A DNA stretch of 61,711 nt from the NCBI GenBank assembly GCA_051745145.1, contig JBNJDT010000007.1:1-61711 (forward strand), given 5' to 3'. Below are positions 1,025 through 46,640 of the stretch, piece by piece. Positions within the stretch are counted from its first letter, which is position 1. Each line of letters begins with the position of its first letter. Position numbers and translations under genes: made by a program. The notes below the pieces were generated by a model. It saw only the letters and a list, made by a program, of their open reading frames with translations, was not told the DNA's origin and ran no database searches. The DNA is from Elusimicrobiota bacterium (GTDB lineage Bacteria; CG03; SLGR01; JAGXOG01).

Positions 1025-1501
1025 GTGAATAATAAGATGAAAAAAATCCTTTTAGTAGATGATAATCCTTCTATACGTAGAATAGGGAAGTTTATGCTGG
1101 AAAAAAATTATGAGGTAATAAGTAGCTCTGATGGTCAAGACGGGGTAGATACCGCTAAAAAAGAACTTCCCGACCTCATACTCATGGATGTGCAGATGCC
1201 TGAAATGAACGGTATAGAAGCTACAAAAGCGATTAAGGCCCATCCGGAAACAAAAAATATACCTGTTATCATTGTCTCTGGTCAGGGAAAAGAAACCGAG
1301 GTAATGGAGGGCATGCAGGCCGGTGTCGAAGATTATGTAGTAAAACCTTTTGATGCGGAAGATCTTAATCGTAAGATAAAAAAGTATATAGGTTCCGAAA
1401 CGCCCCCGAAAGAGCCCCAAAAAGGAAAAGGGATTAAGTTAGTTATATCTTTTATAGTTTTAGTTTTATTAGGGTTTTTTATTTTTAAATTCTTAATGTA
1501 G
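1025..1501 (+). CDS. CheY-like single receiver-domain response regulator with C-terminal transmembrane anchor
   Basis: Intact receiver motifs LLVDDN, LILMDVQMP (phospho-Asp), IIVSG, VKPF. C-terminal hydrophobic LVISFIVLVLLGFFIFKFLM. The start could be GTG 1025 or ATG 1037. Confidence 0.9.
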   Translation: MNNKMKKILLVDDNPSIRRIGKFMLEKNYEVISSSDGQDGVDTAKKELPDLILMDVQMPEMNGIEATKAIKAHPETKNIPVIIVSGQGKETEVMEGMQAGVEDYVVKPFDAEDLNRKIKKYIGSETPPKEPQKGKGIKLVISFIVLVLLGFFIFKFLM

Positions 1502-1550
1502 CTAAGTAAATATTTTAAAAGGTAAAAAAAATTAAAATCGGAGACAATAA

Positions 1551-2960: not shown

Positions 2961-3722
2961 ATGGATTATATGAGTATAGCCGGTATGCTGCTGGGGCTGG
3001 GAGCTGTTTATTACACAGCCGTAACCGGAAATATATTATCTATAATATTTAATAAGGTGGCTTTTATACTTGTCTTCGGGGGAACGGTGGGAGCAACTCT
3101 TCTTACTTATCCGTGGAAAATAATAAAAAATTTACCGGGAAGTCTTATGATGATGATAAAACCCCCTGAATTCGATGAGTATTCGGAAATGATCGAGAAA
3201 ATCACTGATTTAGCTAATATAGCTATTTCCAGCGGGGTAGATGAGTTAAATACTCAGCTTGATTCTATAGATGATCCTTTTTTAAAATCTGCAGTAATAA
3301 TGCTTTTAGAGGGGATGGATGAAGAAGATATAGAAGATAACCTGGATACGGAAATAGCAGCGACTTACCAGAGGCATCAGCAGACAATAGTGGCCTGGAA
3401 GTCTATGGGATCGTATGCCCCGGTTTTTGGTCTTCTGGGAACTCTTATAGGTATTGTCCAAATTTTAAGAGATATTTCGGATCCCAGTACTATGGGAGCC
3501 AATATGGCAGTGGCAATAACAACAACTTTTTACGGAATATTTGCCGCCAATTTTATATTTTTACCGGCCGCGGGAAAACTCGAAATTTACAGCCAGGAAG
3601 AATTAACTCTGCGGGAATTACAGAAAATAGGGGTGATTTCAATAAGCAAGGGAATGCTCCCGGTGGTGATACGTAAGAAGTTGGAGAGATTTCTGGCAAA
3701 AAGCCGTAGAGAAGAAAAATGA
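2961..3722 (+). CDS. motA: MotA/PomA-family stator A subunit
   Basis: AFILVFGGTVGATL, IDDPFLKSAVIMLLEG, YAPVFGLLGTLIGIV, AVAITTTFYGIFAANFIFLPAAGKL are characteristic MotA/PomA TM motifs. Confidence 0.95.
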   Translation: MDYMSIAGMLLGLGAVYYTAVTGNILSIIFNKVAFILVFGGTVGATLLTYPWKIIKNLPGSLMMMIKPPEFDEYSEMIEKITDLANIAISSGVDELNTQLDSIDDPFLKSAVIMLLEGMDEEDIEDNLDTEIAATYQRHQQTIVAWKSMGSYAPVFGLLGTLIGIVQILRDISDPSTMGANMAVAITTTFYGIFAANFIFLPAAGKLEIYSQEELTLRELQKIGVISISKGMLPVVIRKKLERFLAKSRREEK

Positions 3723-4348
3723 AACAGAAAAAACCGGAACAGATAAAACCGGTTTGGTTAACTGTATTCAGCGATATTGTAACAAATCTAACTCTTTTTT
3801 TTCTGTGCATGTTCATTCTTCAGATAGTTTCCTCCGGACAAAAAGTCAAAGCTATGGAGGGAGTGGAAGAAAATTTTGGCGAATCGAAAGAAAAGAAAAC
3901 TGGTGAGGAAAAAGAGGAAGCTGAAGATACAGAAAGTGAATGGGTATCGCTGGATACTGAATATCAAAGCGTGAAGATGAAAGATATAATTAGAATTAGA
4001 CTTCCCAGCGATATTATTTTTGACGTGGGCCGGGCTAATTTAAGTTCTCAGGCAAAAAATTTGCTTGATGACTATGCCAGTATTTTAACTACCACAGATG
4101 CGGATATAGTTGTAGAAGGGCATACGGATAATATACCTATTTCTGGGGGAAGCCGTTATGAATCAAACTGGGAATTATCTATGATGAGAGCCTATAATGT
4201 AGCCAATTTATTGACAAAAAGATATAATATTAACCCTGCCCGGGTTATCTCTGTCGGATATAGTCATTATCAACCCCTGGCTCCTAATGATACGCCAGAA
4301 AACAGGGCAAAAAATCGCCGGGTTGATATAAAAGCCATAAGAGGATAA
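3719..4348 (+). CDS. motB: MotB-family stator B subunit, copy 1 (conserved TM Asp present)
   Basis: WLTVFSDIVTNLTLFF TM motif with the conserved Asp. OmpA-like domain VEGHTDN...SNWELSMMRA...NRAKNRRVDI. Overlaps the motA stop (ATGA). Confidence 0.93.
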   Translation: MKQKKPEQIKPVWLTVFSDIVTNLTLFFLCMFILQIVSSGQKVKAMEGVEENFGESKEKKTGEEKEEAEDTESEWVSLDTEYQSVKMKDIIRIRLPSDIIFDVGRANLSSQAKNLLDDYASILTTTDADIVVEGHTDNIPISGGSRYESNWELSMMRAYNVANLLTKRYNINPARVISVGYSHYQPLAPNDTPENRAKNRRVDIKAIRG

Positions 4349-4954
4349 ATGTCTAAATTAAAAACGAAAAAGACTCAGGCAACCGAGGAAGATTCGTGGC
4401 AGCTTATATATATAGCTCTTATGATGGTGATGATGATATTCTTTCTCATAATGTTTATGTTTTATTACATTGAGGGAGAACAGACTATGGCTAAAAATAT
4501 AAATGTAAGTGAATTGTCGGTAGAACAGGTAGAACAGATGAGACAGATAGTAGATAGAGTACAGGATTTGGATATGGGGGAACAGATCAGGCTTATTTTT
4601 GATACCCCTTTAATGTTTGAATCGGGGCGTGCTGAACTTAAAGATGAAACCCCGGGGTTGAAGAATCTGGCAGAGTTTTTAGCAAATATGGAGGGTATAT
4701 ATATTTTAATTGAAGGTCATACCGATAATGTTCCCATGGGAGCCGGAGGGAAATTTGAGAATAATAAAATGCTTTCTCAATACAGAGCTCTGAATATATT
4801 GAGATATTTTGAAGATATTGGGGTGAATTCTTCAAGATTGGTTGCTGTGGGTAAAGGCGAGTATGATCCTGTAGTTCCTAATGATACGCCTAAAAACAGG
4901 GCAAAAAACCGCCGGGTTGAAATAAAACTTTCCCGGAAGAGATTTTTTCAATGA
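4349..4954 (+). CDS. motB: MotB-like protein, copy 2 (TM Asp replaced by Ala)
   Basis: TM segment WQLIYIALMMVMMIFF. OmpA-like domain IEGHTDN...LSQYRA...NRAKNRRVEI. Confidence 0.85.
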   Translation: MSKLKTKKTQATEEDSWQLIYIALMMVMMIFFLIMFMFYYIEGEQTMAKNINVSELSVEQVEQMRQIVDRVQDLDMGEQIRLIFDTPLMFESGRAELKDETPGLKNLAEFLANMEGIYILIEGHTDNVPMGAGGKFENNKMLSQYRALNILRYFEDIGVNSSRLVAVGKGEYDPVVPNDTPKNRAKNRRVEIKLSRKRFFQ

Positions 4955-5778
4955 AATACTTTAAATATATAGTAATTATTATAAGTTTTTTAGCAGCGGG
5001 TGCTGTAGATAAAGGATTTACGTCCGATGAAGTTTTGGATTATAAATTGGAAATTGAAGTTTATCACAAAGGGGGGAACGGGGCATTAATAAATTTTCCC
5101 GTTGGCGGTAATATGCTGATAGATACCGGAAGTTCCCCGGAAATTATAGATAATATAACCCAAAATATATATAAAAAGGATAAATATTATAAATTTATGG
5201 GGACGCTGGGATGGACTCCTAGAATAGACTGGTTGATAATTAGTAATTTATCTTCGAATAGAATAGCTAACATAAGAGACGTATTGAGAAGCTTTGATAT
5301 AAAAAAAATTTATTCTTCGACTAATATACGTAAATTATACGAAGATGATACAATTGTAACACAATCAGTGGTAAGCGATTTGCTTTATGAACTGGGTTTG
5401 AAGGGACAAAGTATACGTCTGTTATCCGATGGAGATAATATAAAATTTCACCAGGGTATGGAGAATTTAGCTTGTAAAATTTTATATCCCCCTGAACCTG
5501 CTGAATCGCACAGGGACAGTAATATATGTATGAAGATTAAATATAATAGAGTTGAAATTATGTATATATCCGAGTTAACTGAAATGCAACAAAATCAACT
5601 TATAAATTCTAAAGGAGAACAGTTAACAGCCGATATACTTATTCATCCTATAGGTATAAGTTCCGAATTTTTGGGAAAAGTAGGCGCCGAAAATTATATA
5701 ACTACCGGTGAGAATAAAAAAATTATAACAGACGGGCATAGAATAACAATAACAACTTTAAGGAGCAATAATGAATAA
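4951..5778 (+). CDS. exported ComEC/Rec2-type metallo-beta-lactamase-fold protein, metal-binding motif degenerate
   Basis: N-terminal signal/anchor. GNGALINFP..NMLIDTG, IDWLIISNLSSNRI (the usual HxHxDH position), SNICMKIKY, LTADILIHP and IITDG match the ComEC MBL fold, but the His ligands are absent. Confidence 0.65.
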   Translation: MKYFKYIVIIISFLAAGAVDKGFTSDEVLDYKLEIEVYHKGGNGALINFPVGGNMLIDTGSSPEIIDNITQNIYKKDKYYKFMGTLGWTPRIDWLIISNLSSNRIANIRDVLRSFDIKKIYSSTNIRKLYEDDTIVTQSVVSDLLYELGLKGQSIRLLSDGDNIKFHQGMENLACKILYPPEPAESHRDSNICMKIKYNRVEIMYISELTEMQQNQLINSKGEQLTADILIHPIGISSEFLGKVGAENYITTGENKKIITDGHRITITTLRSNNE

Positions 5779-6469
5779 AACAATATTAATTATAACTAAT
5801 GAAGAGAATACCGATTCCACAAAAGATTTGCAGAAAAAGCTTGAAGGATATAATTTTAATATTCAAAAATCTACGAATCAAAAAGAATCTCTGAAAATTC
5901 TTGAAAATGAGAAAATTAATCTTGTTATTATAAATAAAGTACTTGAAAAAAATAAATCCTGGAAATTAGCCCAGAAGATAAAGGATATAGACAGATATTT
6001 ACCGGTTGTATATGTGACTGTATCGGAAGAAGAAAAAAATATTGATGTACCTGAAGAAGAGGCTGAACTTTTAGATAAATATACTGACGGAGTGATAAAT
6101 AAACCTTTTATACATAAGATAATATATAAAAAATTATCCAAATTACTTAGAGTGGCAAACCGTTTGAGAGATCTTAAAAAGGTTAAGGATTTCAGCATTG
6201 TAAAAATAGGAACTGCGGCCGGGTTGATGATTATAGTGTTAACTGCAATATTTTATATTTCAATTACCAAATTAAGTCAGGCTCCGGTGACTGAATATGC
6301 TAAAGTTACATTAACCGAAGTATTTCCGTCAATTCATATAATTATATTTTTACAGTGTTTACTGTTTATTATAGCTTTAGTTGCCGGGTGCGTGCTTTTT
6401 TACCGGTCTATAGATACCCGGGTAAATAGTATAGAGAATCTCGTAGTTGATATTTTACAATCCCGATGA
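5771..6469 (+). CDS. pseudo-receiver domain protein with two C-terminal TM helices
   Basis: Receiver-like fold TILIITNEE / NLVIINKVL / PVVYVT / INKPF with Asn at the phospho-Asp position. Two hydrophobic segments at about aa 145-166 and 189-211. Confidence 0.65.
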   Translation: MNKTILIITNEENTDSTKDLQKKLEGYNFNIQKSTNQKESLKILENEKINLVIINKVLEKNKSWKLAQKIKDIDRYLPVVYVTVSEEEKNIDVPEEEAELLDKYTDGVINKPFIHKIIYKKLSKLLRVANRLRDLKKVKDFSIVKIGTAAGLMIIVLTAIFYISITKLSQAPVTEYAKVTLTEVFPSIHIIIFLQCLLFIIALVAGCVLFYRSIDTRVNSIENLVVDILQSR

Positions 6470-6885: not shown

Positions 6886-8004
6886 ATGAAAGACATAGAT
6901 TTCAGGCTGTATACCGCGGCCAGCAACGGAGACACAGAATCGGTAAAGTCGCTGTTGGAGATCCGTGCGGACGTAAATACAACGATAGAGGGAAAGACAG
7001 CGCTTATGAGAGCGGCTATGGAAGGGCACGCCGGTACGGTAAAAACTTTAATAGATGCCGGAGCAAATCTTGAAAAAAGGGATGAGAAGGGCCGGACAGT
7101 TTTAATGAGAGAGGCAAAGAGGGGGAATGCGGATATAAGCCGGCTGTTAATAGAAGGAGGAGCAAACGTCAATGTAAAAGAAAACGGGACAACTGCCCTG
7201 ATGGAAGCCGCCGGTCGGGGACATCGCTATACATTAAAAACCCTTATAAAAGCAGAAGCAAAATTAGAAGAAAAAGATGAAAACGGGTGGACGGCTCTTC
7301 AAAGAGAAGCCAGGAGGGGAAATACCCGGATAGTGGATATGCTTATAGAGGCCGGGGCCAAGGTAAATGTATCGGATTCTAAGGGGGTGACCCCGCTTAT
7401 AAGTGCCTCGCACGAAGGGCACATAGAGACGGTAAAAAGCCTGCTGGACGGGGGAGCGAAGATAGATAAAAAGATAAGTAAAGGGGGAACGGCCTTGATG
7501 GCCGCGGCGTTTAGAGGGCATACGGATATAGTGAGACTGCTTTTAGCCCGGGGGGCGGATGTAAGTATAGAGAACGAAAAAGGGTGGACGGCGCTGAAGA
7601 TGGCTAAAAATCAGGGGCATACGGTAATAGAGTATATATTAAAAGAGGCCGGCGGGTCAGATAATGATTTTAACAGACCGCCGCTGATATGGGCAGTAAT
7701 AAGAGAGAATAGCGAGAAAGTAAAAGAGCTGTTAGAATCGGGAGCCAGGGTGGAAGAAGAAGATGACCGGGGATGGGATGCATTGATGTACGCCATGGAG
7801 GCGGGAAATACCAAGATAGTATCGCTTTTAAAAGAGGCGGGAGCCTCCCTGGATGAAGAAAAGATAAACGAGGTAAAATTAAAAAAGAGCTTATCTGAAT
7901 TGCGCACGGCAGTAACTATGTACTATGAAGTAGAAGGGAATCCGCCAGAGAACCTGGAAGATCTGGTGCCCGAGTATATAGGAAAGTTGCCCGAAGGGGA
8001 CTGG
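6886..8004 (+). repeat. 1,119-bp direct repeat, copy 1 (matches 16266..17384)
   Basis: Sequence appears identical from ATG 6886 to ...GGGGACTGG 8004, offset 9,380 bp. Translations and the antisense shadow ORFs of both copies are identical over this span. Confidence 0.95.
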
Positions 8005-8058
8005 GAGTATGATCCGGAAAATCTGGAAGTTATTACTAAGGATGCCCCTGATTTGTAA
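6886..8058 (+). CDS. ankyrin-repeat protein with C-terminal pseudopilin (GspG-like) domain, copy 1
   Basis: RBS AGGAGG. About 9 ankyrin repeats (GKTALMRAA, GTTALMEAA, GVTPLISAS, GWTALKMA...). C-terminal LSELRTAVTMYYEVEGNPPENLEDLVPEYIGKLP. Confidence 0.9.
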   Translation: MKDIDFRLYTAASNGDTESVKSLLEIRADVNTTIEGKTALMRAAMEGHAGTVKTLIDAGANLEKRDEKGRTVLMREAKRGNADISRLLIEGGANVNVKENGTTALMEAAGRGHRYTLKTLIKAEAKLEEKDENGWTALQREARRGNTRIVDMLIEAGAKVNVSDSKGVTPLISASHEGHIETVKSLLDGGAKIDKKISKGGTALMAAAFRGHTDIVRLLLARGADVSIENEKGWTALKMAKNQGHTVIEYILKEAGGSDNDFNRPPLIWAVIRENSEKVKELLESGARVEEEDDRGWDALMYAMEAGNTKIVSLLKEAGASLDEEKINEVKLKKSLSELRTAVTMYYEVEGNPPENLEDLVPEYIGKLPEGDWEYDPENLEVITKDAPDL

Positions 8059-8212: not shown

Positions 8213-8261
8213 CTTTTAATAAAGTTATTTGAGTTTAATAATATTTATCAGGAAAAAAATA

Positions 8262-12223: not shown

Positions 12224-12309
12224 ATCTACTGATAAAGGCAACCGGCAGGTAACTGTCGCAGCGCAAAATTACAGTTCCTAATTACAGGAAGGCTGAATTC
12301 CCAGTAGAT
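12224..12309 (+). ncRNA. c-di-GMP-I (GEMM) riboswitch aptamer
   Basis: P1 ATCTACTG (12224-31) / CAGTAGAT (12302-09). AAAGGCAA junction. P2 GGCAG-GTAA (GNRA)-CTGTC. GCGCAAAA junction. P3 AATT-A-CAG-TTCCT...AGGAA-GG-CTG-AATT. Located in the 5' leader of CDS 12470. Confidence 0.85.
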
Positions 12310-12375: not shown

Positions 12376-12420
12376 ACCGATTTGCCTTTATCAGAGTTAT
12401 AAAGGTGAGTCGGTTTTTTT
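12376..12420 (+). terminator. intrinsic terminator, riboswitch expression platform
   Basis: 16-bp hairpin ACCGATTTGCCTTTAT / ATAAAGGTGAGTCGGT (with G-U pairs) followed by a T-run. Its left arm is complementary to the aptamer 5' strand. Confidence 0.85.
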
Positions 12421-16225: not shown

Positions 16226-16265
16226 GGAAAAGAAGAGTATAGAGGGTAAAGAAGAGGCAAAAAAT

Positions 16266-41800: not shown

Positions 41801-44800
41801 TAACCGAAAAAGTTTCTACTCACCTGCAGGAAGTATTTGTGGCCACAGCAACTTTGCTAAGCGAAGAGACCCCCCTTGAAGATAAAAATTTAACATTTAA
41901 TTTTGAGGGAGCTTCCCTCACGGCAAAAACCGATCAATACGGAGTGGCCACGGCTACTTTTAGCGTCCCCGGCTCCACAGCCACTTATTATTATGATGTT
42001 GAATATGCCGGTGATGATGTTTTTCTCCCGGCCACAGGCATGAATAAAGTAATAGTTTCCAGACGTCCTGTTGAACTATACACTCAGTACAGCGAGATAG
42101 CGGTAAAGCCCGAACAGAAATTCACTTCTACGGTGACCCTAAGAGACGCCTTAAATACTGACGGTCTGGATTTAAGGGAAGTAACATTTAGTTTTGAAGA
42201 CGGCAGTTCTACGCCGACTGAAACAGAAGTTACTGACGGTTACGGCGTTTCCTATCCTACATTTACTGCGCCGCTGACAGCGGATACTTATTATCTGGAT
42301 ATGTATTACGGCGGCGATGAACTTTACAGCGAAATTTCCCGGCGCCTGGCAGTACTGGTCACTCCCGAGGGAGTGGGGAATGAAGACGTTGAAATTACGG
42401 TTGAAGATGTCACCGCCTATGTAGATGAAGTGTTTACCACTACCGCCACTTTAAGAGAATTAGATGAAAATACGGGGGTGGCCAACAGCACTATCACATT
42501 CGATTTTTCTGATACCCAAAAAGATGCTGTTACTGATCAGGAGGGGGTAGCTACAGCTACTTTCACGGCCGGCCAGGGCGCGGGTGAGTATAAATATTAT
42601 GCAAATTTTATGGGAGATTCCACGTACTCTTCGGCTTCAGGCGAGGGAAATGTATTAATTCAACTGTGGCCTACGGAAATGACTTCAAAGAATTTGGCCA
42701 TGGAACCCTCAACGGGAACGGAGACATTTACGGCAGAAACTACTCTTCTTGATGTGGAAAAATCGACCGGTCTGGCGTCAAAACCGGTGACTGTGAGTTT
42801 TTACGATGGAGTTTCCACCTACACTTATTCCGGGGATACAGACAGCTACGGATTATTTACAGCTACTTTTCCGGTTCCCTCGACTGAAGGGGAATACAAA
42901 TATATATCCGAATTTACGGGGGACGGGACCTACGATTCAAGCAGTGCGGAGGGGATTGTCACCGTATCCGAAGAAGGGACCGGAACTAATGAATGCGAAC
43001 TGGCGCTTCAAAATTCATTTGTCTACGTGAATAAAGAATTTACCTCCACGGCAACTTTAAAAGAGCTGTCTACCGGTGATCCTCTGGCAAATAAGACTGT
43101 AATATTTGCGTTTGACGGGGAGGAAAAAATTGCCACAACCGACCAAAACGGCGTGGCCGGCGCCAGTTTTGTAGCCGATACTGCAACCGGAACCCAAAAT
43201 ATAACGGCAGAATTTGAAGGGGACGCCGATTATGCAGCGGCAAACGATGATGCTATTGTCTATGTTGAGCTTAATCCTACTGACCTTATCGCAAAAGATG
43301 TAAATACCAATCTCCAGGCAGAAAATTTTAAAGCGACCGCTACTCTTAAAAATATGTTAAATGATGAACCGCTTCTAAATAAAACTTTAGAATTTATCTT
43401 TTACGATGGTACTTCAACTCAGACTGCAACAACCCAGACCGACGGCTACGGAAAAGCAAATGTCTATTTTTCCACTCCCGAATCTACGGGCTCATTTAAC
43501 TATTTAGTGAATTTTAACGGAGACAGCGAGTATGAATCCAGCGATGCCGAAGCGGCAGTAATAGTAGAATCCGGCGGCGAAGATGACGGGGATAATTCCG
43601 GCAAAGGAACGGAAGTTACCATGATTCTGGAGGAGATAAATACTTCGGTTAACAGTGTTTTTACGGCCACGGCCACGCTTGTAGAAGCAGATAATCCGTC
43701 AGAATATATTTCAGACAGGGAAGTGGTATTTGGTTTTGAAGGTTCTTCTAAAACTGCTCTAACCGGTAGCAAAGGACGGGCCCGGGTCTCATTTGACAGT
43801 CCGGCAAGTACGGGAGTATATGTTTTAGCGGCCGAATTTAAAGGGGATGATACTTACAGTGAAGTTTTGTCTACCAATTCTGTAAATGTCGGATTTTTGC
43901 CCCGGGATCCGGAATATGTTAGGGTTTTTGAAAGCACTGAAAAGAATGTAACTTTTAAATGGCCCTCCGTAAAACAGTCCGTAACCGGAGAAAATATGGG
44001 AACCTGTTTTAAAGGTTATACTGTTGAAAAAGCAATAGGAAGACCGGGGAGCTGGGAAAAAGTGGCGGAACTAAGTACTGCAACTTTTGAATATCAGGTA
44101 CCAAAACCTGAAAGTGAAAGTGTATTCTACAGGGTCCGGGGCCGCACGGCCAAACATTTAAGCGCCGGCCAGAACGGGGTTGAAGTAGACGGGGGGAATG
44201 TAATTAACCGGATTGTAATATCCGCTGATAAACAGGTCTGGGCTCAGGTCGATGAAAGAGAAATGGAAGAGAATGAGAAAATTGTTGTGGAGCCCGACGA
44301 AGAACAGGAAGAAGGTTTTCAGAAGATGTATAGCGTTAAAGTTCTCCACAACGGCCGGGAAGTAGATAAACAGTTTAAGTACAGAGGGGTGAAGCTGACT
44401 TTCTCCTATGAAAGTTTGAAAAGGGACGGTTTAATAACCGGATTATCCGCTGAAGATAAAAAACTGGTCCTATTCTGGCACAATGGCGTTGAATGGATCC
44501 GCATAGGCGGTAAAGACAACAGATGGGAGGATGAAATTTATGTATATACCAAGAATACCGGACGGTTTGCTATAAAGGCTGTTGAAGAATCCAACGAATT
44601 TAACTTAATAAAGGTTACCCCCAGGATATTTACCCCGGAGGCGACGTCGAAAAATATAAACCGGGCCAGGTTTGAACTTGAAAATCCGAATTACAGAAAT
44701 ATAGCCATAAGAATTTATGATATGTCGGGACAAATTATCCGAAGGAATCTCGATTCCGAATCGGGAGATCTCTATTACTGGGATGGTAAAGATGAAACCG

Positions 44801-44886
44801 GCGATTATGTAAGCGGCGGTGTTTATGTATACCAGATAGAAGCAGACGGAAAAATAATAAACGGTACTGTAGTAGTGGCAAAATAA
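17893..44886 (+). CDS. giant 8,997-aa secreted surface protein/adhesin: DUF2341, FN3-like, roughly 75 Ig-like repeats, T9SS-like (FlgD-Ig) CTD
   Basis: Single uninterrupted ORF with signal peptide (..SIVSA/ED). DUF2341-like motif (DYQIRLSLDT...DGSDLRF...IPFWIE...VYMYYGNP). ~96-97 aa repeats 'R.T.L......F.ATATL.D.....I....V.F.F.G...TA.TD..GvA...FTAP...G.Y.Y.A.F.G...Y..S'. C-terminus VTPRIFTP...IRIYDMSGQ...WDGKDETGDYVSGGVYVYQIEA...NGTVVVAK. The repeat count is an estimate from length. Confidence 0.92.
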   Translation: MNKLKKIFYISKVTLQLSWILFISFSINLSIVSAEDVWTDETDTDFDTGTSTGIYINGVDESATLDLEWYGKETGASLPENLEWADQDFKYRKRVRLQSPANYTIRDYQIRLSLDTQSLIDEGKLEADGSDLRFFNSEGSSIPFWIEKGLNTAETYIWLKIDHFSDFETKDVYMYYGNPSAVSQSDFDSTFIFGDHYTAPYGSSPDSDKWDNIQYPSPPQDAKREIVENRLRYKFKTTTSTSKGWYGLRSTETYNFSGGRRIAIDMEAFTYGPGRESYFSLCPTVSERSEREDDFIQFKIFHDTPSYVIRQRHRGGFNTIVSETDLSTGTHKIDFFIDSSNLEVDLDGQTVYSGSVDLDFTSAYLYQEAVSESDIFEYYNFDNLKISNWETDSPYVRDIYEEQGRYKPSGIYTSRVKDTGDQGTYFSEVDWTSTIPDLTDISAQVRAHDDQVDSGTWTAVSKGENPGVEGRYAQYRLNLNTQKPIDTPQIDKVDVFYIYAPGAPVKLSGTGEGATRIRWKWESSSTEKNKEDGFRILDTTGNIKGSVGADSKSWDELELEANTPYTRKIEAYNVAGANKSTYSVTAYTLPTAPQVGCDKGADSWYGSGSTFTFTNYAGFGRGSLEYYGYKWSTSTAYNWTGNESHWNSDKLKIQPQQTGSYYLHVLAYNADDVAGYDTYYGPYKYDESPPAVSKIEPSSSAWTSASPEVEIDFEKPTEGAELFAWRYNINEYPEKPAFGWTNWNDEIMDSTAATVGVEIGKEGNNYLHIEVKDTADNGDYDLGGVYELDFSSPTGSIVINDGDTYVSTTSVILSLTYEDELSGVEKVRFQNGDSGWDDWLAPASEMNWSLLKGTGTKTVKYQIRDGVGNMSPVYSDTIILDNLFPEVVGFRPSSHTWTNSIVDVAMDFRHEGPAKLSKWQYVVSPSETEPDSGWSLWKTDIDGQSTATVTVGGEVGVNYLHVKLEDGSGKQIYDSSGPYKVDQGNPSGDILIEAGNVYTPTTTVTLNLSYEDSKSGVENVRYRNQGKSWSGWESPVSTKTWFLDETVGTKVVEYQVEDKAGNESDVYADDIIYDPVEPEIYDFNPSSSGWVNNFIDVDIFISDEGDSDLEEWRYMVTESTSKPQAGWQNWDSSISGSSDTMVEVLLTDTLNYLHVEAADKANNKSYGYSGPYRIDTENPTGSVSINDGDEYTDSKDVKLSLNYEDGVSGIEEVRYRNGGENWTEWQNPVSTRSWTLSSGTGTKVVHYNIEDRAGNSKSYSDSIVLSYFSEMNAEDKSTISSGESQSETENFTAEAKLTWKSTGDELKDKEVVFKFEGSSHTSTTNNSGIASADFEVPQSSGIYYYTAEFEGDSKYVASSDTGVLTVDRRKITIRTSDRQVTAGTDFQAKATVEDYETEEPLKGKLITFTYKPSTYTPTYTSTATTNEMGVATTTFNSGTTDGAFDLVGNYEGNSIYREESGAGEVAVGLRFTITTPFPSTTLALDTFTVSGQVKDAENGYGIEGGTVKFTLNGATKTAVTGTGDSAGEAETGWGDSITDAGEYKLNMEFLGQGSYMASSGTSTITVNQRPLVHNFKGEMWDYTVTTTTMVSEIVDGNTSEGVEGLEVIYKFRNINNTAYTDSAGSSTSSFYTGNKAAKYITTATFRGNSTYKKVQSTETYRIYRRPTVTTAFDVESLTLSSFTATARLRTSGGVNIEDRKIKFTFPDGVQKSSFTNSSGKAQVIHNAPPEKGTYTYEADFTGDDTYAPSGGDADLAVSPRPAIIIINSSDWGWARDPIHLNAKLTDGISNELISGATLHFSLYENSETISEITQEGEEWASAGEFSPINVSGYYDYGVTFDGSLTYEADSDSEVYHNSSRDINVNAPDYDEVFALSTFTLRGTVKDNTYHYDSGVNLEGQEADYYLEGATHTATLTGQPGSTRAFDAPAEIQAPGVPDNYSYTLNYSGDAAYDAGSDGGNLEVIRRPTNINSASKDPYAGDEFLASAELGDSNSGDPIEEKEITFYFEGSTITADTDSSGVAKATFTAPGVPGIYEYRAAFGGNYLYEPSSGTASVDVQERPTSLSPADREPYAGEVFNPRATLSDSVSGDEIEGEEVTFYFEGNTRTAVTDENGVAKSTFTAPMVSTETYNYTAGFEGTYLYESSSGSASVDVQKRPTGLAAESRDPYANDEFYPRATLTDNVSGGSVEGEEIKFYFEGETKTARTNSSGVAVTTFTAPSVSTGSYNYTASFEQTYLYESSTGNANVAVQKRPTGLAAESREVYANNEFYPHATLSDSVSGDNVEGEPVNFYFEGETKTAQTDSNGVAVTTFTAPSVSTKSYTYTAGFDGTYLYESSTGTANVNVQKRPSALAAESREVKANNQFNPQATLTDTDSGEKIENKEILFYFEGETKTALTDSSGMAITTFTAPSVSTESYSYTASFEGTYLYESSTDSAGVNVQKRPTNLTANFREPYANNEFQTKATLSDTDSSENIENKEITFNFEGETKTARTDAQGIAITTFTAPSVSTESYSYTASFEGTYLYESSSGTENVNVQKRPTNLSADTREVYANNEFYPRATLGDTAPGDENMEGEEIYFYFDGSTKTAVTDKDGVAISTFTAPSVSTESYSYTASFKGTYLHVKSTGTAEVTVKKRPTSLAANSREPYANNEFYPRATLTDTAEGGGSVENEEIEFYFRGSTKTALTNGEGVAVTTFTAPSVSTESYTYTAGFKGTYLYVSSTDTAGVNVQKRPTSVSADSREPLAASTFTARAELKDIDDNSFISGKEVKFIFEGATKTATTDGVGVATVSFTAPLDPRGDYSYTSIFTGDYLYESSTGSANVNVLKRPSNINVPNQWEYALEDFTATAVLTDNENGDVIDDEVTFTNSWSTSSEVAFLNEENDDYRVTFTAPSPPTGTYTFTASFSGNNLYSASTGTANLSVVKRPTVINASEREPRADDEFQLKANLKDDWGDILTDKKVSFNLDWTTYTQTADTEQDGNAYLTVTAPEIPGTYSYEAGYEGNYLYESSTDTAQVDVKKRLSQLTASSKDVPVENTFTAGTTLTDAEDGYALEGATVTFTFEEVQKATVTDSAGNAWADFETSTPTRNTSYKVNFNGSQKHLSSTKTASVNIHLRETSVTGDAVEVEVEDNFFARARVKDDDSGSYLADRNLYFEFLGSTDTAATGPAGERAEVSYTAPVSTGIYYFSVDHSSSPVYAASSDQSQVKVIPAEMQLTAYSKNVLALSSPTLRAHLKNMVDESNFSSATVKFFMLGSTETEKTGDAGNAYATFDWDLIGSTGTYQYQASYEGDATHDPDSDTANLTVERRPTNIVAYNKETNAGADFKAEAELKDQTTNDFIKDKTVYFYFEGSTKTALTSSVGIATATFTTPSSTQTLSYTAEFKDDDPIYIGNWDTGDVEIAQSETNMEVTRVDVYPGDVFVATATLTNAVSGNPLSEKEVTITFTTHSVTDNTTGEGIVTGEFTAPVSTGNYNIHAKYDGSDSYLESSDDDYAVVRKCETTIEAHNRYFYLKETGNLVADLTRVDNSTGIPNKTIEFEIEGTTYTKTTDSNGRAVKYIGELSTETFPVSGNYTDYDYDSRFNQDDSDYYYGKSKDNSQLFRVRKRLTSLTTYDRETYINGQFTARADLNDTTGDSDVALEDRTILFDFEGSTKSASTDSTGKAEVTYDVPATSGTYSYTASFSSSPVYRAADSDSNVTVSRIPTSITPDDKKVKTNTSFDLRGNLQDNDSNSLEDKAIKFEFQESTDSAVTDASGWAQTGYTSPSTPAVYYGYLNFEGNSEYQPSNATATITVTKSSTTVDAEDLYDLPPSSVFTATSTVTDDDTGIRVTNVDVMYVMWDGSSHTVNTTGSGMAEFEYSSPDTLGEYEYTVKFFENDQYFASQSTGIVTVTQGTSKISLSSPTVYVDNVFYATATLKNAVNDEPIEEADIHFNFEGIEKITQTDEMGVATVTYTANVPEGDSEYDLNAYYPETDSFTGSSSTTTVNVLKRDTELTSEDISAYVGDIIQSTATLTDLQASAGVDQETVEFNYYENSSDHLQNRQTDSEGVAVATFTPTAAGMWDMYINFYETAKYRASSSTRTVEVSKIPTTLEAEASTGVYVTEEFYPRATLTNDLDNGGIENETVIFDINYDTFTASGTAQTNSDGLAIATFTASQAGNITYTSTFEENDMYLASTDTVNLEIDRYPVDIKVDDVLTTANEYFNSTATLTNPVLADEPIEDKVAEFSFYKTDPPEVKYSTTDASGEAITEFLSPSEGGEFEMVVQVEQDRIYESTSTTANVVVERRETTIQNVNDFTVKVQESFTSTATLKDAVDDTPIDTEDLNFVFFGSTHTDTTNASGEASVSANAASQVGIYSYKVYFNESGLYKSTEAIAEVTVEPAPTTLDAESHIEVLANSVFQATATLKNELTEDPAQSETIEFTFEGSTATGETSSSGLATSSNLEVDVGAGDYIYYADFNGSSNYTSSSDTGTVTVSKNPTETHTEDITTMASGSHPGGKFPPGGNRDVYFTSTGTLLDSNDNPVEGKTLDFYFAQGTDFFQDASATTDSEGKAVVTDFVSPTSVGTYEVEIDFSGDERYKASSGTGTVEVTERYATLSLDDSYATAMEVFTSTVYVEDFNSGEPVGGSTMTFRYEEDYNNSTTYEAVTDTMGYAYAEFTAAADASIDYDMKVDFYDVNYQTNSAVSTVFMSKRDTALNFKDITGVVYENLTATATLVDTVSDPDSSLSDKQISFTFPEGFSPTSASDDTDLTGEANAEVTAPDTYNTYYPTAEFPGDNTYASSNSDAQADILRRDSSLTVQDMADQKVYDVFTVTAAFIDEYGPDGDVSGRDIELRFYNGTSTQTQTSVTDSSGEATAEFTAPAQAGTYSYSAQFSTDSAYNGSVSASKDVAVLKRDPEVDAVEVNTETYDEFETVATFTDPDSGGDVENREIKFVYSGTTTIEKTKYTDETGQATAGFTAPDTAGTYSYEAVFVGDSSYNSSTSTAKNINVSRRTIDIAATPADTETFDLFTATATITDSHTPAGDVEGRTVQFVYEDDGGAVIDQKTSVTDSNGVANVDFNAGDASGIYQYKAILEEDYSYNSSTSAYVDVNIAKSDINIAGEEVASLPMETFKATATLTSPKNGPVSDENIEFTFEGDIQTDVTDSNGEAFVQFTAPASSGNYYYQAEFSGNASYYSSSTDTLVKVGKREANITAENVNTETMDIFTATATVTDSIGGGDVSDRDVEFTFSGDGNTVIKTAQTDSNGVAVSTFTAPDTDGAYSYTAELLEDGTYKSALSAPADVIVDKRTLSVTGSDITVLVMENFTTEATLTDSKPNSQLGGLPVKFVYSGTDTITKTGTADNSGYAEVTYNGVDFAATGHSYKAIFEGNSSYYSSTGPVYNVTFEKRDALISADSVNTETMDIFSATATVTDDHASSGDVSNRAVEFNFYGDGNTVTKTFQTDEFGVAVATFTAPADAGNYSYDAQLLEDEAYNASSAESAGVAVEKRETTLVNEDITTYALDVFTATATVTDKDGGVSGITVNFSGSVNGINISESAVTDGSGVATTVIDSTEATSAAGNFILSAEFPGNSTYKSSSNDSQLTIEKIPTSLNIDGIVAHRVYDKIDQLFAAELKDSRDGSGAGNKDCRFVFFTDPKKENTETTGSSGWAYSTFYAPASSGTYDYKAVFDGNDAYLSSTSTVKSVTINRRNLNMSVGNLETKTFATFTATATLSDPNNSDGQGDVEDRLVNMVFKDETDTEIDSAQVYTDASGRAFADFTAPDVGGTYYYHAEFDGDSSYISTTSVDATVTVQKRETQITAEPVNTKTLEVFNATATLMNSSGAPVEGKSLDFVYTGTDTITKTDTTRSDGKAYSLFNAPASSGTYSYKAVFSGDDSYKSSTSPAVDVNVARRDSNVAAEPVTTKTLEVYKATATMSDKDGPVDNKELTFTVQYSTYSRESTDVTNSQGQAYVDFRAPESSGTYNLTVEFTGDSTYKPDSDTKTVFVDTRDTAVQVYGVESKTYDVFKATSVLKDGESGNPISDIQLEFTFNGTQRYDTTDQQGKASVSYTAPSAAGDYELSSSFEGNSTYSPASGTNTVVVTKRDTDITARDVDTVAMTVFKATATLEDKDGGVENKNIDFSFEGQDKSANTDSQGMAVVEFDAPVSSGTYTYFAEFPEDPGHLGSSTQAQVTVTRRKTDMYTFELTTNTLGDFTVEAQIEDQKTGEGMAVPVDIVFEGTSTITKSDNSGSSGWVSTNFNTPAQSGDYRYFAQFDGNQTYEPSSSSSPVTVTKRETFLSAAAAQALASDSSIGQTETFETVGTIRDEENKLVNGVDLVFTFETVYSTETTDSQGEAAAQFNSPEDATLEYSYAVNFNGNETYQASSTSAVVTVNKRESQMSGLQDLTTTTEEYFYSTATLRDPGSVSPLEGKVVDFKVDTIKEGEDTTDSAGEAHFKHNIQVTGQKQLVANFAGDETYKATADTCTITVGIPTNLTVYDANSIVESTFTVKADLWDSLNDVRLSTKTVKLNFDGQEKSQETDAVGEIYIDYYSGVERGTGTFPVYGEFEGDDTYGPSSGEGSVTIELRPTHINAYPLTQYINEDIEPGGKLIDTDTGAGIKDKNLEFSFNYSTKVIQSDKTDDTGEVIETYKSPQSTGSYKYFMDFGGDNVYNHSAATGPVDIELRPSMVITEDRNIIAGSEFNVEAELIDTVDYTKINNENIKFEFNGDTATVLTGSRGIAVATFTAPGDTGQDYTYTATFDGTNIYSSHQSSSNINVGMESSVICEEVDTVIEQVFTATATLTDSEGTPLSTRPVTFIYSHNGSSDTVITGESGVATATFTAPGSTGSWNYQVKFEGDETYGASSDKADITVEGFNTSLTAAEAPNLNSEEVFVATATLYDEFNSEYVSGKEIQFSFEYDSDGKTTATAVTNAMGVATTTFRTPYEPGSYNYTALFTDDPAYSASGDTATVSVDKRPAKLLGDDVWVRPDRVFTATTTLEDEYSGDAVSSATVNFSYYDGESTQTYSTLTDPEGVATATFTASAAMGIYEYRVSFEGNDIYGATSDTLEVEVDKYETSLAMEPVTVPLGEIFNSSATLTDTENNETLAGKEVEFIFYSSQTVTRNTFTDAYGVAESTFAALPSTGNYIAEANFYEDDSYHYSGTTQTVTVIRRQTELTGESVNVKPEKIFTATATLKDAVGSKTALGSKTVTFSYYDGSSTATVTKVTDSYGNVYSTFTAPAATGTYSVAVEFAGDSEYKESSDIINVYTTQEGAGGGLKLRAYDTGVILEENFTASAKLTDEDEPLVNSTVTFTFDGTTRTVTTDSLGIASTTYSAPPSTGEYMYTADHERSYITITDGGFVEVSRRPTVLSKERDVNTNVEAIFSSTVTLTDFTTGDTLSGKEIKTSFYKTGSTVTFEGSTGEYGMSGSTFTAPTSSGIYTMESVFSGDSIYGISSELITVNVSRRPLILETNRVTTKPDQIFTATATLTGGVTKLPVEQKELEFNYYNGVSTETVYRETDSSGVAEATFTAPENTGDYSYSVSYPGDSKYQSVSETEIVEVKNRLTEITAENVFVPSEGVFKATATLVDIEDSSKMSQKEVTFEFYKTGSTRTATVFTDSSGISTATFSAPFDAGTYEYSAEFSGDSTYASSEDTAEVYVGKRSAELVTPSGLNLYVEQVFTASATVKDGFDGTELSSVPVTFNYFKGNSTQTVTHFTDDYGVANTTFEAPVSSGVYSYSAEFSGNDNYEPATGEALINVDNYATDLVLQVPNSIFIGQTLQSTGTLTRNEGGIPVEGQEIAFEFNGSVKKRDTGSGGIGNADFSSPASSGTYTMDLIYEGTATYKPSSDNNEISVLRRPTEIDGQSVSVPQDTVFTATATLVDYLSEDKIEGSRPVQFTFTAGTTTYYSEDETSNGIAVSTFMAPSSTGIYSCSAVFEGDNTFMNSSDIFSVHVTYDEGEGEGTSETEIITEKVSTHLQEVFVATATLLSEETPLEDKNLTFNFEGASLTAKTDQYGVATATFSVPGSTATYYYDVEYAGDDVFLPATGMNKVIVSRRPVELYTQYSEIAVKPEQKFTSTVTLRDALNTDGLDLREVTFSFEDGSSTPTETEVTDGYGVSYPTFTAPLTADTYYLDMYYGGDELYSEISRRLAVLVTPEGVGNEDVEITVEDVTAYVDEVFTTTATLRELDENTGVANSTITFDFSDTQKDAVTDQEGVATATFTAGQGAGEYKYYANFMGDSTYSSASGEGNVLIQLWPTEMTSKNLAMEPSTGTETFTAETTLLDVEKSTGLASKPVTVSFYDGVSTYTYSGDTDSYGLFTATFPVPSTEGEYKYISEFTGDGTYDSSSAEGIVTVSEEGTGTNECELALQNSFVYVNKEFTSTATLKELSTGDPLANKTVIFAFDGEEKIATTDQNGVAGASFVADTATGTQNITAEFEGDADYAAANDDAIVYVELNPTDLIAKDVNTNLQAENFKATATLKNMLNDEPLLNKTLEFIFYDGTSTQTATTQTDGYGKANVYFSTPESTGSFNYLVNFNGDSEYESSDAEAAVIVESGGEDDGDNSGKGTEVTMILEEINTSVNSVFTATATLVEADNPSEYISDREVVFGFEGSSKTALTGSKGRARVSFDSPASTGVYVLAAEFKGDDTYSEVLSTNSVNVGFLPRDPEYVRVFESTEKNVTFKWPSVKQSVTGENMGTCFKGYTVEKAIGRPGSWEKVAELSTATFEYQVPKPESESVFYRVRGRTAKHLSAGQNGVEVDGGNVINRIVISADKQVWAQVDEREMEENEKIVVEPDEEQEEGFQKMYSVKVLHNGREVDKQFKYRGVKLTFSYESLKRDGLITGLSAEDKKLVLFWHNGVEWIRIGGKDNRWEDEIYVYTKNTGRFAIKAVEESNEFNLIKVTPRIFTPEATSKNINRARFELENPNYRNIAIRIYDMSGQIIRRNLDSESGDLYYWDGKDETGDYVSGGVYVYQIEADGKIINGTVVVAK
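23790..26400 (+). repeat. block of closely similar intragenic tandem repeats (288-291 bp period)
   Basis: CAAAAACGGCC recurs at 24355, 24643, 24931, 25219, 25507 and 26089 (variant at 25798), encoding QKRP...FTAPSVST.SY.YTA.F.GTYLYESS. Confidence 0.9.
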
Positions 44887-46640
44887 TGAATTTAAATAAA
44901 AAAATCAGACAGTGCATCGGCATAGTTTTAACGGCGGCGATAATCGCCGCAGCCGGCGTCGTTAAAGTCCAGGGAGCTTTTTACGAAGACCAGGATACCG
45001 GTGCCCGGGCCCGGGCAATGGGCGGAGCTTATGCGGCCGAAGTAAATAAAGTGGACGGGGCATTTTATAATCCCGCAGCCATGGCCGGATTGACAAATAT
45101 TGAGCTGGATACTTCCTACGAACAGAAATTTATGGGGCTTTCTGACGAGTCGGAATTAAGTAAATATGTTCTGGGCATGGGGATACCGCTTAACTTCGGT
45201 GATTTGGATCTTGGGGCCGCGGGATTTAGTCTTAACAGGTTCGGATTGGACAATCTGTACTCCGAAACGGCTCTGGGGGTATTTTACGGATATCCTGTTC
45301 TGGATAATTTTCTTTTAGGGACCCATGTAAAGTTACTCAGCGTAAATTACAAAGAGACAGAATATACCCTGATTAATCCCATATTTGATAAAGGTTATAC
45401 CAGTTCTGTTTTCAGTACGGATGTGGGAGTAATCTACCGGCTGAGCGGCCGGTATAACTTGGGGGTTTCCATTCTCAATGCAAATTCGCCGGATATAGGA
45501 TTAGAATATGAGAACAGGGTAAAAAGAAATATACGTCTGGGCGGTTCTATGAGAACGCAAAATTTAAATTTAAATTTTTCTTTAACCCATTTACCCGGAA
45601 GTATAAGGGCAAGAACGGGTATGGAAACCTGGCTGCTCAATAGATCACTTTTTTTCAGAGGAGGGTTTAATATAGGAAGCGCTAACTATAGAAATTTAAC
45701 TTTGGGATTTGGCTATAATTACGATAAAATAAGTGTGGATTATTCCTGGAGCTATCCTCTTTCGGGGATAAATGATATGTTAGGCAATCACCAGATTAGC
45801 TGCAGTTATTATTTCGGAGAAGAAAAACCCGAAGAAGAGTTTGAAGGAGGCCGGGCTCCGTCTTTTGGAGGTCGGAGAGTTGCCGGCCCCGGTACCAGCG
45901 GCAGTATACTTGATCCCGACAGCCCTGTACCCGCCCATGTGGTTGAAAAGAATCTGCCGGAATCTCAAAAAGAAGAGGCGGCAAAAGCAGTTGAGGAAGG
46001 GCAGGAAGCTCTTGAACAGCAGAATTACCGGTTAGTTCTGGAAAAATACCGGGAGGCCAATGACCTTTTAGAAGGGGATCCGGAAATACAGGACCAGTTA
46101 TCTAAATTAGATAAGGTTGTAGAGTATGTTCCTTCAAATGAATTTGACAGAGAAGAGATAGAAGAACTTCCGCCTGCCGAGCGGGAAGAAGCCCAAAAGA
46201 GGTACCGGCTCTTGTCCAATGGCATAGAGGGGATTTTGAAAGACAATTCCGATAAGGCGATAAGAAATATAGCATATGCTGCCCAGTTGTGGCCGGATGA
46301 TAAAAATATCAAAGGTTTACTGACAGATGTGGTTCAGGAAAGATTTCCCACTGAATATGCCAATAAGAAATTTTACATAGAGACAAATTGGGTAAATCAG
46401 CTTCTGGCTGAGTCTCTGGAATACTTTTATGACGGCCGGTACAGTATGGCTATAAGAAAATGTCGTCAGGTGCTGGAGTTAGAACCTACGAATACGGTTG
46501 CTCTTACCCGCTTGGGCTCAATTCACTGGGCCAGAGGAGACGAGGAGGTCGCCTATTCCCTGTGGCAGAGAGTTCTTGAGATCGATCCCGACAACAGGGA
46601 AGTTTTACCCATGATTGAAAGATACGAAGAGAAACAGTAA
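44886..46640 (+). CDS. PorV/PorP(SprF)-like outer-membrane beta-barrel with C-terminal TPRs
   Basis: GARARAMGGAYAA...AFYNPAAMAG N-terminus. The barrel ends DYSWSYPLSGINDMLGNHQISCSYYFG. C-terminal TPRs (AIRKCRQVLELEPTN, LWQRVLEIDPDN). TAATG overlap with the giant gene stop. Confidence 0.85.
   Translation: MNLNKKIRQCIGIVLTAAIIAAAGVVKVQGAFYEDQDTGARARAMGGAYAAEVNKVDGAFYNPAAMAGLTNIELDTSYEQKFMGLSDESELSKYVLGMGIPLNFGDLDLGAAGFSLNRFGLDNLYSETALGVFYGYPVLDNFLLGTHVKLLSVNYKETEYTLINPIFDKGYTSSVFSTDVGVIYRLSGRYNLGVSILNANSPDIGLEYENRVKRNIRLGGSMRTQNLNLNFSLTHLPGSIRARTGMETWLLNRSLFFRGGFNIGSANYRNLTLGFGYNYDKISVDYSWSYPLSGINDMLGNHQISCSYYFGEEKPEEEFEGGRAPSFGGRRVAGPGTSGSILDPDSPVPAHVVEKNLPESQKEEAAKAVEEGQEALEQQNYRLVLEKYREANDLLEGDPEIQDQLSKLDKVVEYVPSNEFDREEIEELPPAEREEAQKRYRLLSNGIEGILKDNSDKAIRNIAYAAQLWPDDKNIKGLLTDVVQERFPTEYANKKFYIETNWVNQLLAESLEYFYDGRYSMAIRKCRQVLELEPTNTVALTRLGSIHWARGDEEVAYSLWQRVLEIDPDNREVLPMIERYEEKQ

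Follow-up and report, generated by a model that had tools for sequence, protein, structure and literature searches.

A FliF/FliG fusion protein encoded with MotA and MotB near PorV-like barrels in Elusimicrobiota: a candidate non-flagellar envelope motor

We analyzed a stretch of 61,711 nucleotides (nt) of contig JBNJDT010000007.1, here called the window, from the genome of an Elusimicrobiota bacterium (G000; 1.80 Mb in 94 contigs, 92.57% complete). The window holds genes for a flagellar-type stator and for a single protein that combines parts of FliF and FliG, followed by genes for two outer-membrane barrels of the PorV/PorQ family and for a giant adhesin (Table 1), and all genes between positions 1 and 61609 are on the plus strand. 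For comparison, we used a phylum sample of 26 genomes (G000 to G025, 14 of which are at least 90% complete) and 40 loci around fusion or MotA matches, whose open reading frames (ORFs) were compared with the window proteins. L038 designates the locus of a genus-mate, and L039 that of the closest outside relative of the window.

Table 1. Features of the window discussed in the text, with scores in bits and lengths in amino acids (aa). TM, transmembrane helix; REC, receiver; CTD, C-terminal domain; T9SS, type IX secretion system. Cut-offs: NF033709 (PorV/PorQ-family barrel model), 90; FliG_C, 23.3; Response_reg, 30.2; TIGR04183, 23; CHU_C, 27; FlgD_ig, 27; TIGR04189, 200.
Feature	Position	Strand	Evidence
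Cytoplasmic coiled-coil protein, 3' part, open at contig start	1..804	+	Translation; no Pfam match over cut-off
REC1, CheY-like receiver with C-terminal membrane anchor	1025..1501	+	Response_reg 103.5, E 9e-30; TM aa 139-157
Single-chain FliF (RBM3-like + 2 TM)/FliG (middle + C-terminal) fusion, 469 aa	1551..2960	+	FliG_C 41.9
MotA/PomA, flagellar-type stator A subunit	2961..3722	+	MotA_ExbB 94.3
MotB1, channel Asp and OmpA-like peptidoglycan-binding domain	3719..4348	+	OmpA 68, MotB_plug 26.3
MotB2, paralogue with Ala in place of channel Asp	4349..4954	+	OmpA 59, MotB_plug 19.8 (sub-threshold)
Secreted protein of 275 aa, coupled translationally to MotB2 and REC2	4951..5778	+	No Pfam/NCBIfam match
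REC2, degenerate (pseudo-)receiver, two C-terminal TM	5771..6469	+	Response_reg 28.9 (below cut-off)
Ankyrin-repeat protein, copy 1	6886..8058	+	Ank_2 211.8
Surface-protein candidate of 710 aa, T9SS-like CTD	8229..10361	+	CHU_C 21 (below cut-off); PorZ C-terminal stretch E 7e-9
PorV/PorQ-family outer-membrane barrel, ~270-aa coiled-coil tail	10361..12100	+	NF033709 135.1; PorQ 94
c-di-GMP-I riboswitch aptamer	12227..12305	+	RF01051 41.5, gathering score 35, E 3e-5
Intrinsic terminator	12376..12414	+	16-bp stem then T run; best terminator-like site in 700-18000
Bitopic membrane protein of 1251 aa: outer TPR + Ig-like, TM, ~930-aa cytoplasmic coiled coil	12470..16225	+	TPR_2, Big_3_5 (sub-threshold)
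Ankyrin-repeat protein, copy 2	16212..17441	+	Ank_2 211.4
Giant adhesin of 8,997 aa: signal peptide, DUF2341, FN3, 76 Ig-like repeats, T9SS-like CTD	17893..44886	+	DUF2341 65, Big_3_5
PorV/PorQ-like barrel with periplasmic linker and TPR tail	44886..46640	+	NF033709 65 (below cut-off); TPR

Motor genes, cargo genes and barrels of the window

The seven genes at 1025-6469 abut or overlap by 4 to 8 nt, which is why we consider them one operon; its reading frames are intact, and a gap of 417 nt separates the end of REC2 from the first ankyrin-repeat gene. An earlier note on this DNA, made from its letters alone, had listed here a stator of one MotA and two MotBs, a rotor-like fusion and two membrane-tethered receivers, all co-oriented. 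Profile searches found every one of these genes on the plus strand, with one correction: both MotBs carry OmpA and plug domains, but MotB2 lacks the channel Asp. REC1 has a homologue of 76% identity at the same position in L038, with a ratio of nonsynonymous to synonymous substitution rates (dN/dS) of ~0.13. REC2 carries its TM helices at aa 143-161 and 190-208, and inspection of the translation by eye suggests that both its acid pocket and its phospho-acceptor Asp have been substituted. The 275-aa protein between MotB2 and REC2 appears to be lineage-specific, since no homologue of it was found in the 40 related loci; by eye it gave the impression of a degenerate metallo-beta-lactamase fold, an idea that we dropped, as Pfam and NCBIfam give it no support.

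An exhaustive HMMER search with the fusion protein yielded 523 cluster representatives (at 50% identity) with E values of at most 1e-3 and 186 with at most 1e-10, and many of the matches align over their full length of 440 to 500 aa. A word-indexed search returned only the query itself and one protein of 71% identity. FliG_C was present in all 47 aligned members of the family, FliG_M in 40/47, YscJ_FliF_C in 24/47, and FliG_N in 15/47. When compared with the sequences of the PDB, the family profile matched the middle and C-terminal domains of T. maritima FliG (E 4e-55), residues 405-520 of Salmonella FliF (E 8e-6), a second FliF chain (E 4e-4), and SpoIIIAG (E 3e-3). The AlphaFold2 model of the fusion (mean predicted local distance difference test score of 81.3) consists of a TM helix (8-31), a periplasmic domain with a helix-strand-strand-helix-strand order (35-152), a second TM helix (164-181) that continues as a helix to residue 201, a disordered linker (203-243), and a FliG-like helical domain (255-464). 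LPGVP, the sole invariant motif of the family, falls in the inter-strand loop of the periplasmic domain. Foldseek placed FliG at the top of its matches to the model (E 8e-8), followed by FliF chains of the MS-ring and of ring-building motif 3 (RBM3) (E 1e-3 to 1e-2).

The FliF portion comprises only the RBM3-like domain and its two flanking TM helices. The N-terminal region of FliF is missing, and YscJ_FliF gave no match in the genome while matching in the control genomes; the N-terminal domain of FliG, which normally joins FliF and FliG, is missing as well. The protein is RBM3 and TM joined to the middle and C-terminal domains of FliG, and its description as a single-chain FliF-ring/FliG protein holds. 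Compared with the genus-mate, the fusion gene has a dN/dS of ~0.08, with dS saturated, and it is under purifying selection. The ESM Atlas, which we used for leads only, points to relatives of the fusion in Elusimicrobiota, Cloacimonadota, Bdellovibrionota, and Bacteroidota.

We then looked into the stator and its interface with FliG. The window MotA can be aligned over its entire length with flagellar MotA and PomA chains of solved structure (E 5e-43 to 2e-20), and the two channel prolines are both present; its score against NCBIfam model NF006583 is 181 bits, below the equivalog cut-off of 237. The TM segment of MotB1 aligns to that of C. sporogenes MotB, with the channel Asp kept. The charged residues of torque generation we take to be R281, D288, and D289 of FliG and R90 and E98 of MotA, by E. 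coli numbering. This numbering agrees with the accessible part of PMC7564593. Alignment to solved structures revealed that the window MotA has Ile/Ser and Asn at the positions of the flagellar Arg and Glu that contact FliG and that the FliG part of the fusion has Leu, His, and Ser at the positions of the flagellar Arg and Asp pair, so that the canonical charges are lost on both sides in the window copy. The basic MotA residue is kept in 31 of 32 related MotAs, the exception being L039, which resembles the window. In the torque helix of FliG, E-H replaces E-E only in the window, L038, and L039 among related fusions, and most relatives keep the acidic pair. In the MotA tree, L039 groups with the window as its sister (support 97/96), and the MotA of L039 is the one most identical to that of the window (49%). 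Paired charge loss on both sides within one clade is to be expected of a real MotA-FliG contact, although it is a single evolutionary event.

The island also contains two pairs of a cargo gene and a barrel gene, each overlapping by 1 nt: the 710-aa surface-protein candidate with the barrel at 10361-12100 and the giant adhesin with the barrel at 44886-46640. The 76 Ig-like repeats of the adhesin extend across aa 1223-8708 with a median spacing of 98 aa. The earlier note had proposed both pairs, as well as long coiled-coil proteins and a c-di-GMP riboswitch. The pairs are present, with CTDs that are only near-threshold and a second barrel below the cut-off of the family model, and long coiled coils were indeed located, two in separate proteins (1-804 and 12470-16225) and one as the tail of the barrel at 10361-12100. 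The riboswitch is also present and scores above its gathering threshold; we had to correct its place, as it precedes the 1251-aa coiled-coil protein and not the motor operon.

Related loci and genomic setting

The related loci fall into two paralogous motor systems, type 1 (the kind found in the window) and type 2, which correspond to two MotA clades with 100/100 support each. Type-1 loci have the order fusion, MotA, MotB1, MotB2. Type-2 loci begin, in many cases, with a CTD-tailed cargo and a short barrel and continue with a c-di-GMP-I riboswitch, a barrel protein with a TPR tail (530 to 560 aa), a fusion of 630 to 740 aa whose TPR tail is cytoplasmic, a likewise cytoplasmic coiled-coil protein of 1,150 to 1,650 aa, MotA, and MotB. 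FlbD was located directly upstream of the type-2 MotA in all 10 FlbD matches (10 genomes), a position that would argue for a flagellar origin. The type-2 MotA tree follows taxonomy and therefore fits long vertical inheritance. In the 14 type-1 loci of relatives with two MotB genes, the second MotB invariably lacks the channel Asp (N, T, S, or A instead), and the single MotBs of type-2 loci keep it in 15/15 cases. A conserved Asp-less MotB paralogue is unusual.

Evaluation of the relative positioning of motor and barrel genes revealed that the module recurs next to PorV-like barrels of a single class, which carries a periplasmic TPR tail. A gene for a barrel with a TPR tail is located directly upstream of the fusion in 16/16 type-2 loci that include upstream DNA (in one of them, L065, the fusion gene is known from the phylum-wide fusion search only). 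The same holds for 8 of the 18 type-1 loci of relatives, where the barrel protein has 526 to 790 aa and often follows a CTD-tailed cargo. The earlier note had suggested looking for such co-occurrence in related genomes, and the counts in the assessable loci of both types show that motor and barrel genes are syntenic there. Matches of 285 to 300 aa that resembled PorV2 and follow MotB2 in type-1b loci were discarded as barrels because they match in the TPR part only.

The motor-adjacent barrel with its TPR tail forms one orthologous class across 9 families. In L039, the order of genes is cargo, barrel with TPR tail, fusion, MotA, MotB, MotB, and receiver, and the window barrel at 44886-46640 matches the motor-adjacent barrel of L039 over its full length (36% identity, E 6e-112). 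Among the 22 barrels of G000, only this one matches the L039 barrel with the TPR tail included, and from these alignments we identify it as the full-length orthologue. A gene for a CTD-tailed cargo precedes this barrel in L039, L047, L049, L050, L056, and the window. The components of the window are the same as those of the relatives, but they are spread over 45 kb in separate transcription units. Elsewhere in G000, on contig C48 (974-4848), we noted a paralogous pair. Its cargo, of 704 aa, ends in 25 residues that are nearly those of the giant adhesin's tail, and its barrel, of 587 aa, shares 33% identity with the one at 44886-46640, in the barrel part only.

No type-2 system was found in G000. 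A type-2 locus of the genus-mate ends at the same OB-fold, TctA, and YdjM genes that follow 44886-46640 in the window, and we take this shared end to mean that the type-2 motor genes were lost or replaced at the window site and are not merely unassembled. A c-di-GMP-I riboswitch heads the operon of barrel, fusion, coiled-coil protein, MotA, and MotB in the three type-2 loci scanned; these riboswitches lie directly before the barrel gene, at 15542-15624 in L057, 14492-14566 in L058, and 3744-3823 in L060 (one GGC variant, 73 bits). Single-domain receivers were found in eight type-1 loci (L039, L040, L041, L044, L045, L050, L051, and L056).

Across the phylum, the fusion is present in 21/26 genomes, including all 14 that are at least 90% complete, with up to 4 matches per genome, and a MotA homologue is present in 22/26. 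G000 has one FliG_C gene and two MotA_ExbB genes, the second of which encodes a 204-aa protein of the TolQ/ExbB type (C2:86294). Profile searches of G000 with FHIPEP (PF00771), Flagellin_N (PF00669), FliMN_C (PF01052), YscJ_FliF, and Flg_bb_rod (PF00460) gave no match, while each of these families matched in all four flagellated genomes used as positive controls; FHIPEP exceeded its cut-off in 0/26 genomes of the phylum. The earlier note had named a complete flagellum elsewhere in the genome as what would speak against it, and for these five families none was detected in G000.

The setting resembles that of a T9SS, without detectable GldKLMN. A SprA-like protein of 1,693 aa is encoded on contig C37 of G000 (TIGR04189, 185.4 bits, E 1e-54, below the cut-off of 200); the family model exceeds it in length by ~600 residues, and homologues of 1,440 to 1,760 aa, or less where a frame is truncated, occur in 25/26 genomes. 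GldL and GldM exceeded their cut-offs in 0/26 genomes, in searches that lacked a positive control since no control genome matched, and GldM_1st, GldK, and GldN gave no match in G000, the GldN search likewise being without a positive control. PorV-family barrels exceeded the cut-off in 26/26 genomes, with 6 to 35 matches each, a huge expansion for genomes of 0.7 to 2.8 Mb. At least 12 of the 22 barrel ORFs in G000 have a CTD-tailed ORF upstream. The PorU-type C25 peptidase (PF01364) was not found in G000 and is absent from 17/26 genomes; since the 9 genomes that contain it all belong to a single family (f9), most of the phylum would need an attachment of CTDs that is free of PorU.

Comparison with known systems and possible function

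To our knowledge, all known FliG/FliF rotors are flagellar. The module has in common with the flagellar motor core the middle and C-terminal domains of FliG, an RBM3-like FliF domain with a TM helix after it, a flagellar-type MotA over its full length, a MotB with plug, Asp, and OmpA parts, and, in type-2 loci, FlbD directly before MotA. The step between stator and FliG most likely works as in the flagellar motor. The module of the window differs in having no export apparatus, rod, hook, filament, FliM/N, N-terminal region of FliF, or N-terminal domain of FliG. It also unites FliF and FliG parts in one polypeptide, an arrangement of which the examples known to date are fusions engineered in Salmonella and Vibrio, according to the accessible part of PMC11481574. 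Further differences are the second, Asp-less MotB and the partners, which here are outer-membrane barrels and coiled-coil proteins.

Known T9SSs are powered by the 5:2 motor GldLM/PorLM and have a PorKN ring. With the T9SS and gliding machinery of Bacteroidota, the genomes sampled share PorV/PorQ barrels, pairs of cargo and barrel genes, and, at scores that stay below the model cut-offs in G000, a SprA-like translocon and CTD-like tails. The CheY-like regulator beside the motor recalls PorX (PMC10951265, accessible part), and the proposed logic, in which an ion motor of the inner membrane drives an outer-membrane process, is also the same (PMC8986121, accessible part). In contrast, GldK/L/M/N were not found here (the GldL, GldM, and GldN searches being without a positive control), the C25 peptidase is missing from G000 and from most of the genomes, the SprA-like protein is shorter and scores below the cut-off, the motor is of the MotAB type with a FliG/FliF partner, and the organism is outside Bacteroidota.

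A third point of comparison is SiiAB, encoded by Salmonella pathogenicity island 4, where the genes of a MotAB/ExbBD-like proton channel accompany that of SiiE, a giant adhesin of tandem Ig domains that the channel assists. We know of no FliG/FliF partner and no PorV-like barrel in that system. SiiE is exported by a type 1 secretion system, and the MotA of the window is genuinely of the flagellar type. SiiE has a mass of 595 kDa and 53 BIg domains (accessible parts of PMC5466336 and 10.1101/641415).

In the literature searched, outside subscription journals and supplements, we found no description of the module. According to the accessible part of 10.1101/2022.07.08.499144, non-flagellated free-living Elusimicrobiota carry motAB, flbD, and fliG, with a role called unclear, and in its accessible part the MotAB phylogeny of PMC12505986 treats flagellar-type stators as flagellar. 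We add the phylum-wide counts, the division into two paralogous systems, the finding of a SprA-like protein where GldKLMN gave no match, the conservation of an Asp-less MotB2, and the paired loss of charges. A motor core next to adhesin-holding barrels suggests an envelope machine that has not been described.

We are highly confident that a conserved, selected, non-flagellar gene module of FliF-ring/FliG, MotA, and MotB exists. A tentative proposal, to which we give somewhat less than an even chance, is that these genes encode a non-flagellar envelope motor found throughout the phylum, with one copy in the window, and that giant adhesins with CTD tails are secreted, attached, or moved by its power. 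In such a motor, a MotA5-MotB stator with an intact ion channel would sit in the inner membrane, held to peptidoglycan by the OmpA-like domains, and would act by turning or pulling on the FliG-like cytoplasmic domain of the bitopic fusion. By means of its cut-down periplasmic ring-building motif of FliF, the fusion would probably assemble into a ring in the membrane that has FliG as an integral part, and this ring would be coupled across the periplasm to the linker and TPR tail of PorV/PorQ-like barrels. Those barrels would hold surface proteins with T9SS-like CTDs, here the giant adhesin, and the motor would take the role that GldLM has in Bacteroidota as the supplier of proton-motive energy, which would serve secretion and attachment or, alternatively, adhesin movement. 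Regulation may be exerted by the CheY-like receivers and, via riboswitches, by c-di-GMP. Since GldKLMN/PorKLMN went undetected in a lineage that does have a SprA-like translocon, the motor would stand in for GldLM. The earlier note had already inferred that a flagellum-derived motor replaces GldLM; synteny and phyletic pattern fit this inference, which finds partial support.

We also considered the more specific possibility that the rotor-stator core (an RBM3 ring with built-in FliG, and MotA5B2) works throughout the phylum as a stand-alone rotary unit, built into a T9SS-like surface-protein system in place of GldLM, turning or pulling PorV-like barrels through their TPR tails and thereby secreting, tensioning, or moving adhesins. 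The stator would then use a heterodimeric MotB1/MotB2 axle with one proton-carrying Asp. We regard this as doubtful, yet its consequences would be considerable. If it is true, torque can be generated without type III export, and living cells offer a model for a stage of motor evolution before or after the flagellum. A conserved motor of flagellar parts joined to T9SS-type outer-membrane parts would in any case give the MotAB-type stator family a third use, with a true rotor, and would explain the handling of very large adhesins in a widespread uncultured lineage. It would also bring within reach of experiments a minimal torque unit, the role of an Asp-less MotB partner in a 5:2 motor, and the joining of the flagellar motor with the export apparatus.

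Several observations weigh against an adhesin-handling motor. The window MotA is the most diverged copy (end branch of 0.92), and canonical electrostatic torque is doubtful here because the equivalents of MotA R90/E98 and of FliG R281 and D288/D289 are lost. Ten of the 18 type-1 loci of relatives have no directly adjacent barrel, and five of these barrel-less loci run fusion, MotA, MotB1, MotB2, and then a protein with the TPR tail only; a c-di-GMP riboswitch was not found in any of the four type-1a loci scanned. Within the window, spacing and promoter-like sites (8184-8212 before the 710-aa cargo candidate and 17651-17679 before the giant adhesin) divide the genes into separate transcription units: that of the motor, those of the two cargo-barrel pairs, and that of the riboswitch. 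Two barrels within 45 kb are weak evidence, as 22 barrels in 1.8 Mb lead one to expect ~0.75 in a stretch as long as the window. The CTD matches of the window stay below the curated cut-offs for TIGR04183 (21.4 bits, at the tail of the giant adhesin, versus 23), CHU_C (20.7 to 21 versus 27), and FlgD_ig (19.1 versus 27). The SprA-like gene has housekeeping genes as neighbors and no linkage to the motor, and the Gld negatives are limited, the searches for GldL, GldM, and GldN having matched in no control genome.

The loss of the torque charges would also fit a mechanosensor or signaling device, in which the load on the adhesin is passed through barrel and TPR tail to the ring and stator, comparable to the load sensing of flagellar stators, with phosphorylation or c-di-GMP as an output that controls adhesion. 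The presence of REC1 and REC2 within the motor operon, the recurrence of single-domain receivers in type-1 loci, and the riboswitches that head the three scanned type-2 operons all favor such a device. A sensor, however, has less need of an ion pathway kept under purifying selection (the MotA prolines, the MotB1 Asp, and the dN/dS values); moreover, nearly all related MotAs have the basic residue and most related FliG parts the acidic pair, and a profile scan found no kinase in the window. We consider this explanation unlikely, if worth keeping in view. The barrel-less type-1 loci agree as well with a motor that energizes another envelope process, such as Tol-Pal-like outer-membrane tethering and lipid homeostasis or Tad/type IV pili, with the barrel and TPR tail as a mere anchor and the adhesins as bystanders. 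Given the expansion of barrels in 26/26 genomes, a cargo beside a barrel is the default everywhere, and the accessible part of 10.1101/2022.07.08.499144 suggests a link to twitching or gliding. On the other hand, G000 has a separate gene of the TolQ/ExbB type, the barrel next to the fusion belongs to a specific TPR-tailed orthologous class found in 9 families, and a CTD-tailed cargo precedes that barrel in five relatives and the window. We judge this explanation quite improbable.

Decaying, functionless remnants of a lost flagellum would account for the lack of other flagellar genes in G000, for the lost torque charges, and for the long MotA branch of the window copy. This view is already contradicted by the intact frames, by dN/dS values of 0.08 to 0.13, and by the phylum-wide presence of the fusion, which occurs in each of the 14 high-quality genomes and in up to 4 matches per genome; the abutting and overlapping genes of the operon and a type-2 MotA tree that follows taxonomy also speak against it, and we give it next to no chance.

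Other features of the window

The coiled-coil protein that is open at the contig start (1-804) has a homologue of 911 aa in the genus-mate, upstream of REC1 and the fusion and without a TM helix or signal peptide. The riboswitch at 12227-12305 was found in a sensitive Rfam scan and had been missed with default filters. The terminator that follows it is likely to be the expression platform of the riboswitch, and control of the window's motor operon by this riboswitch is ruled out by its position. The 1251-aa protein downstream has TM helices at 4-22 and 295-313. We rejected it as a homologue of the type-2 coiled-coil protein, as we saw only low-complexity similarity between the two. Its gene contains two tandem repeats of ~201 nt (13877-14293; 82% identical, spacing of 216 nt) that encode repeated acidic helical units of ~72 aa.

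The starts of the two ankyrin genes, 9.4 kb apart, share a stretch of 300 nt that is 100% identical (6883-7182 and 16263-16562), which indicates recent duplication or gene conversion. Between the two copies of the stretch lie the riboswitch, the 1251-aa protein, and the first pair of cargo and barrel, a block whose deletion or inversion the repeats could mediate. Just downstream of the island, at 50520-57896, we found an intact, ordinary operon of the Bat/MoxR type, with genes for a MoxR AAA+ ATPase, a DUF58 protein, a DUF4381-like protein, a BatA-like VWA protein, a second VWA protein, a TPR protein, and BatD with TPR.

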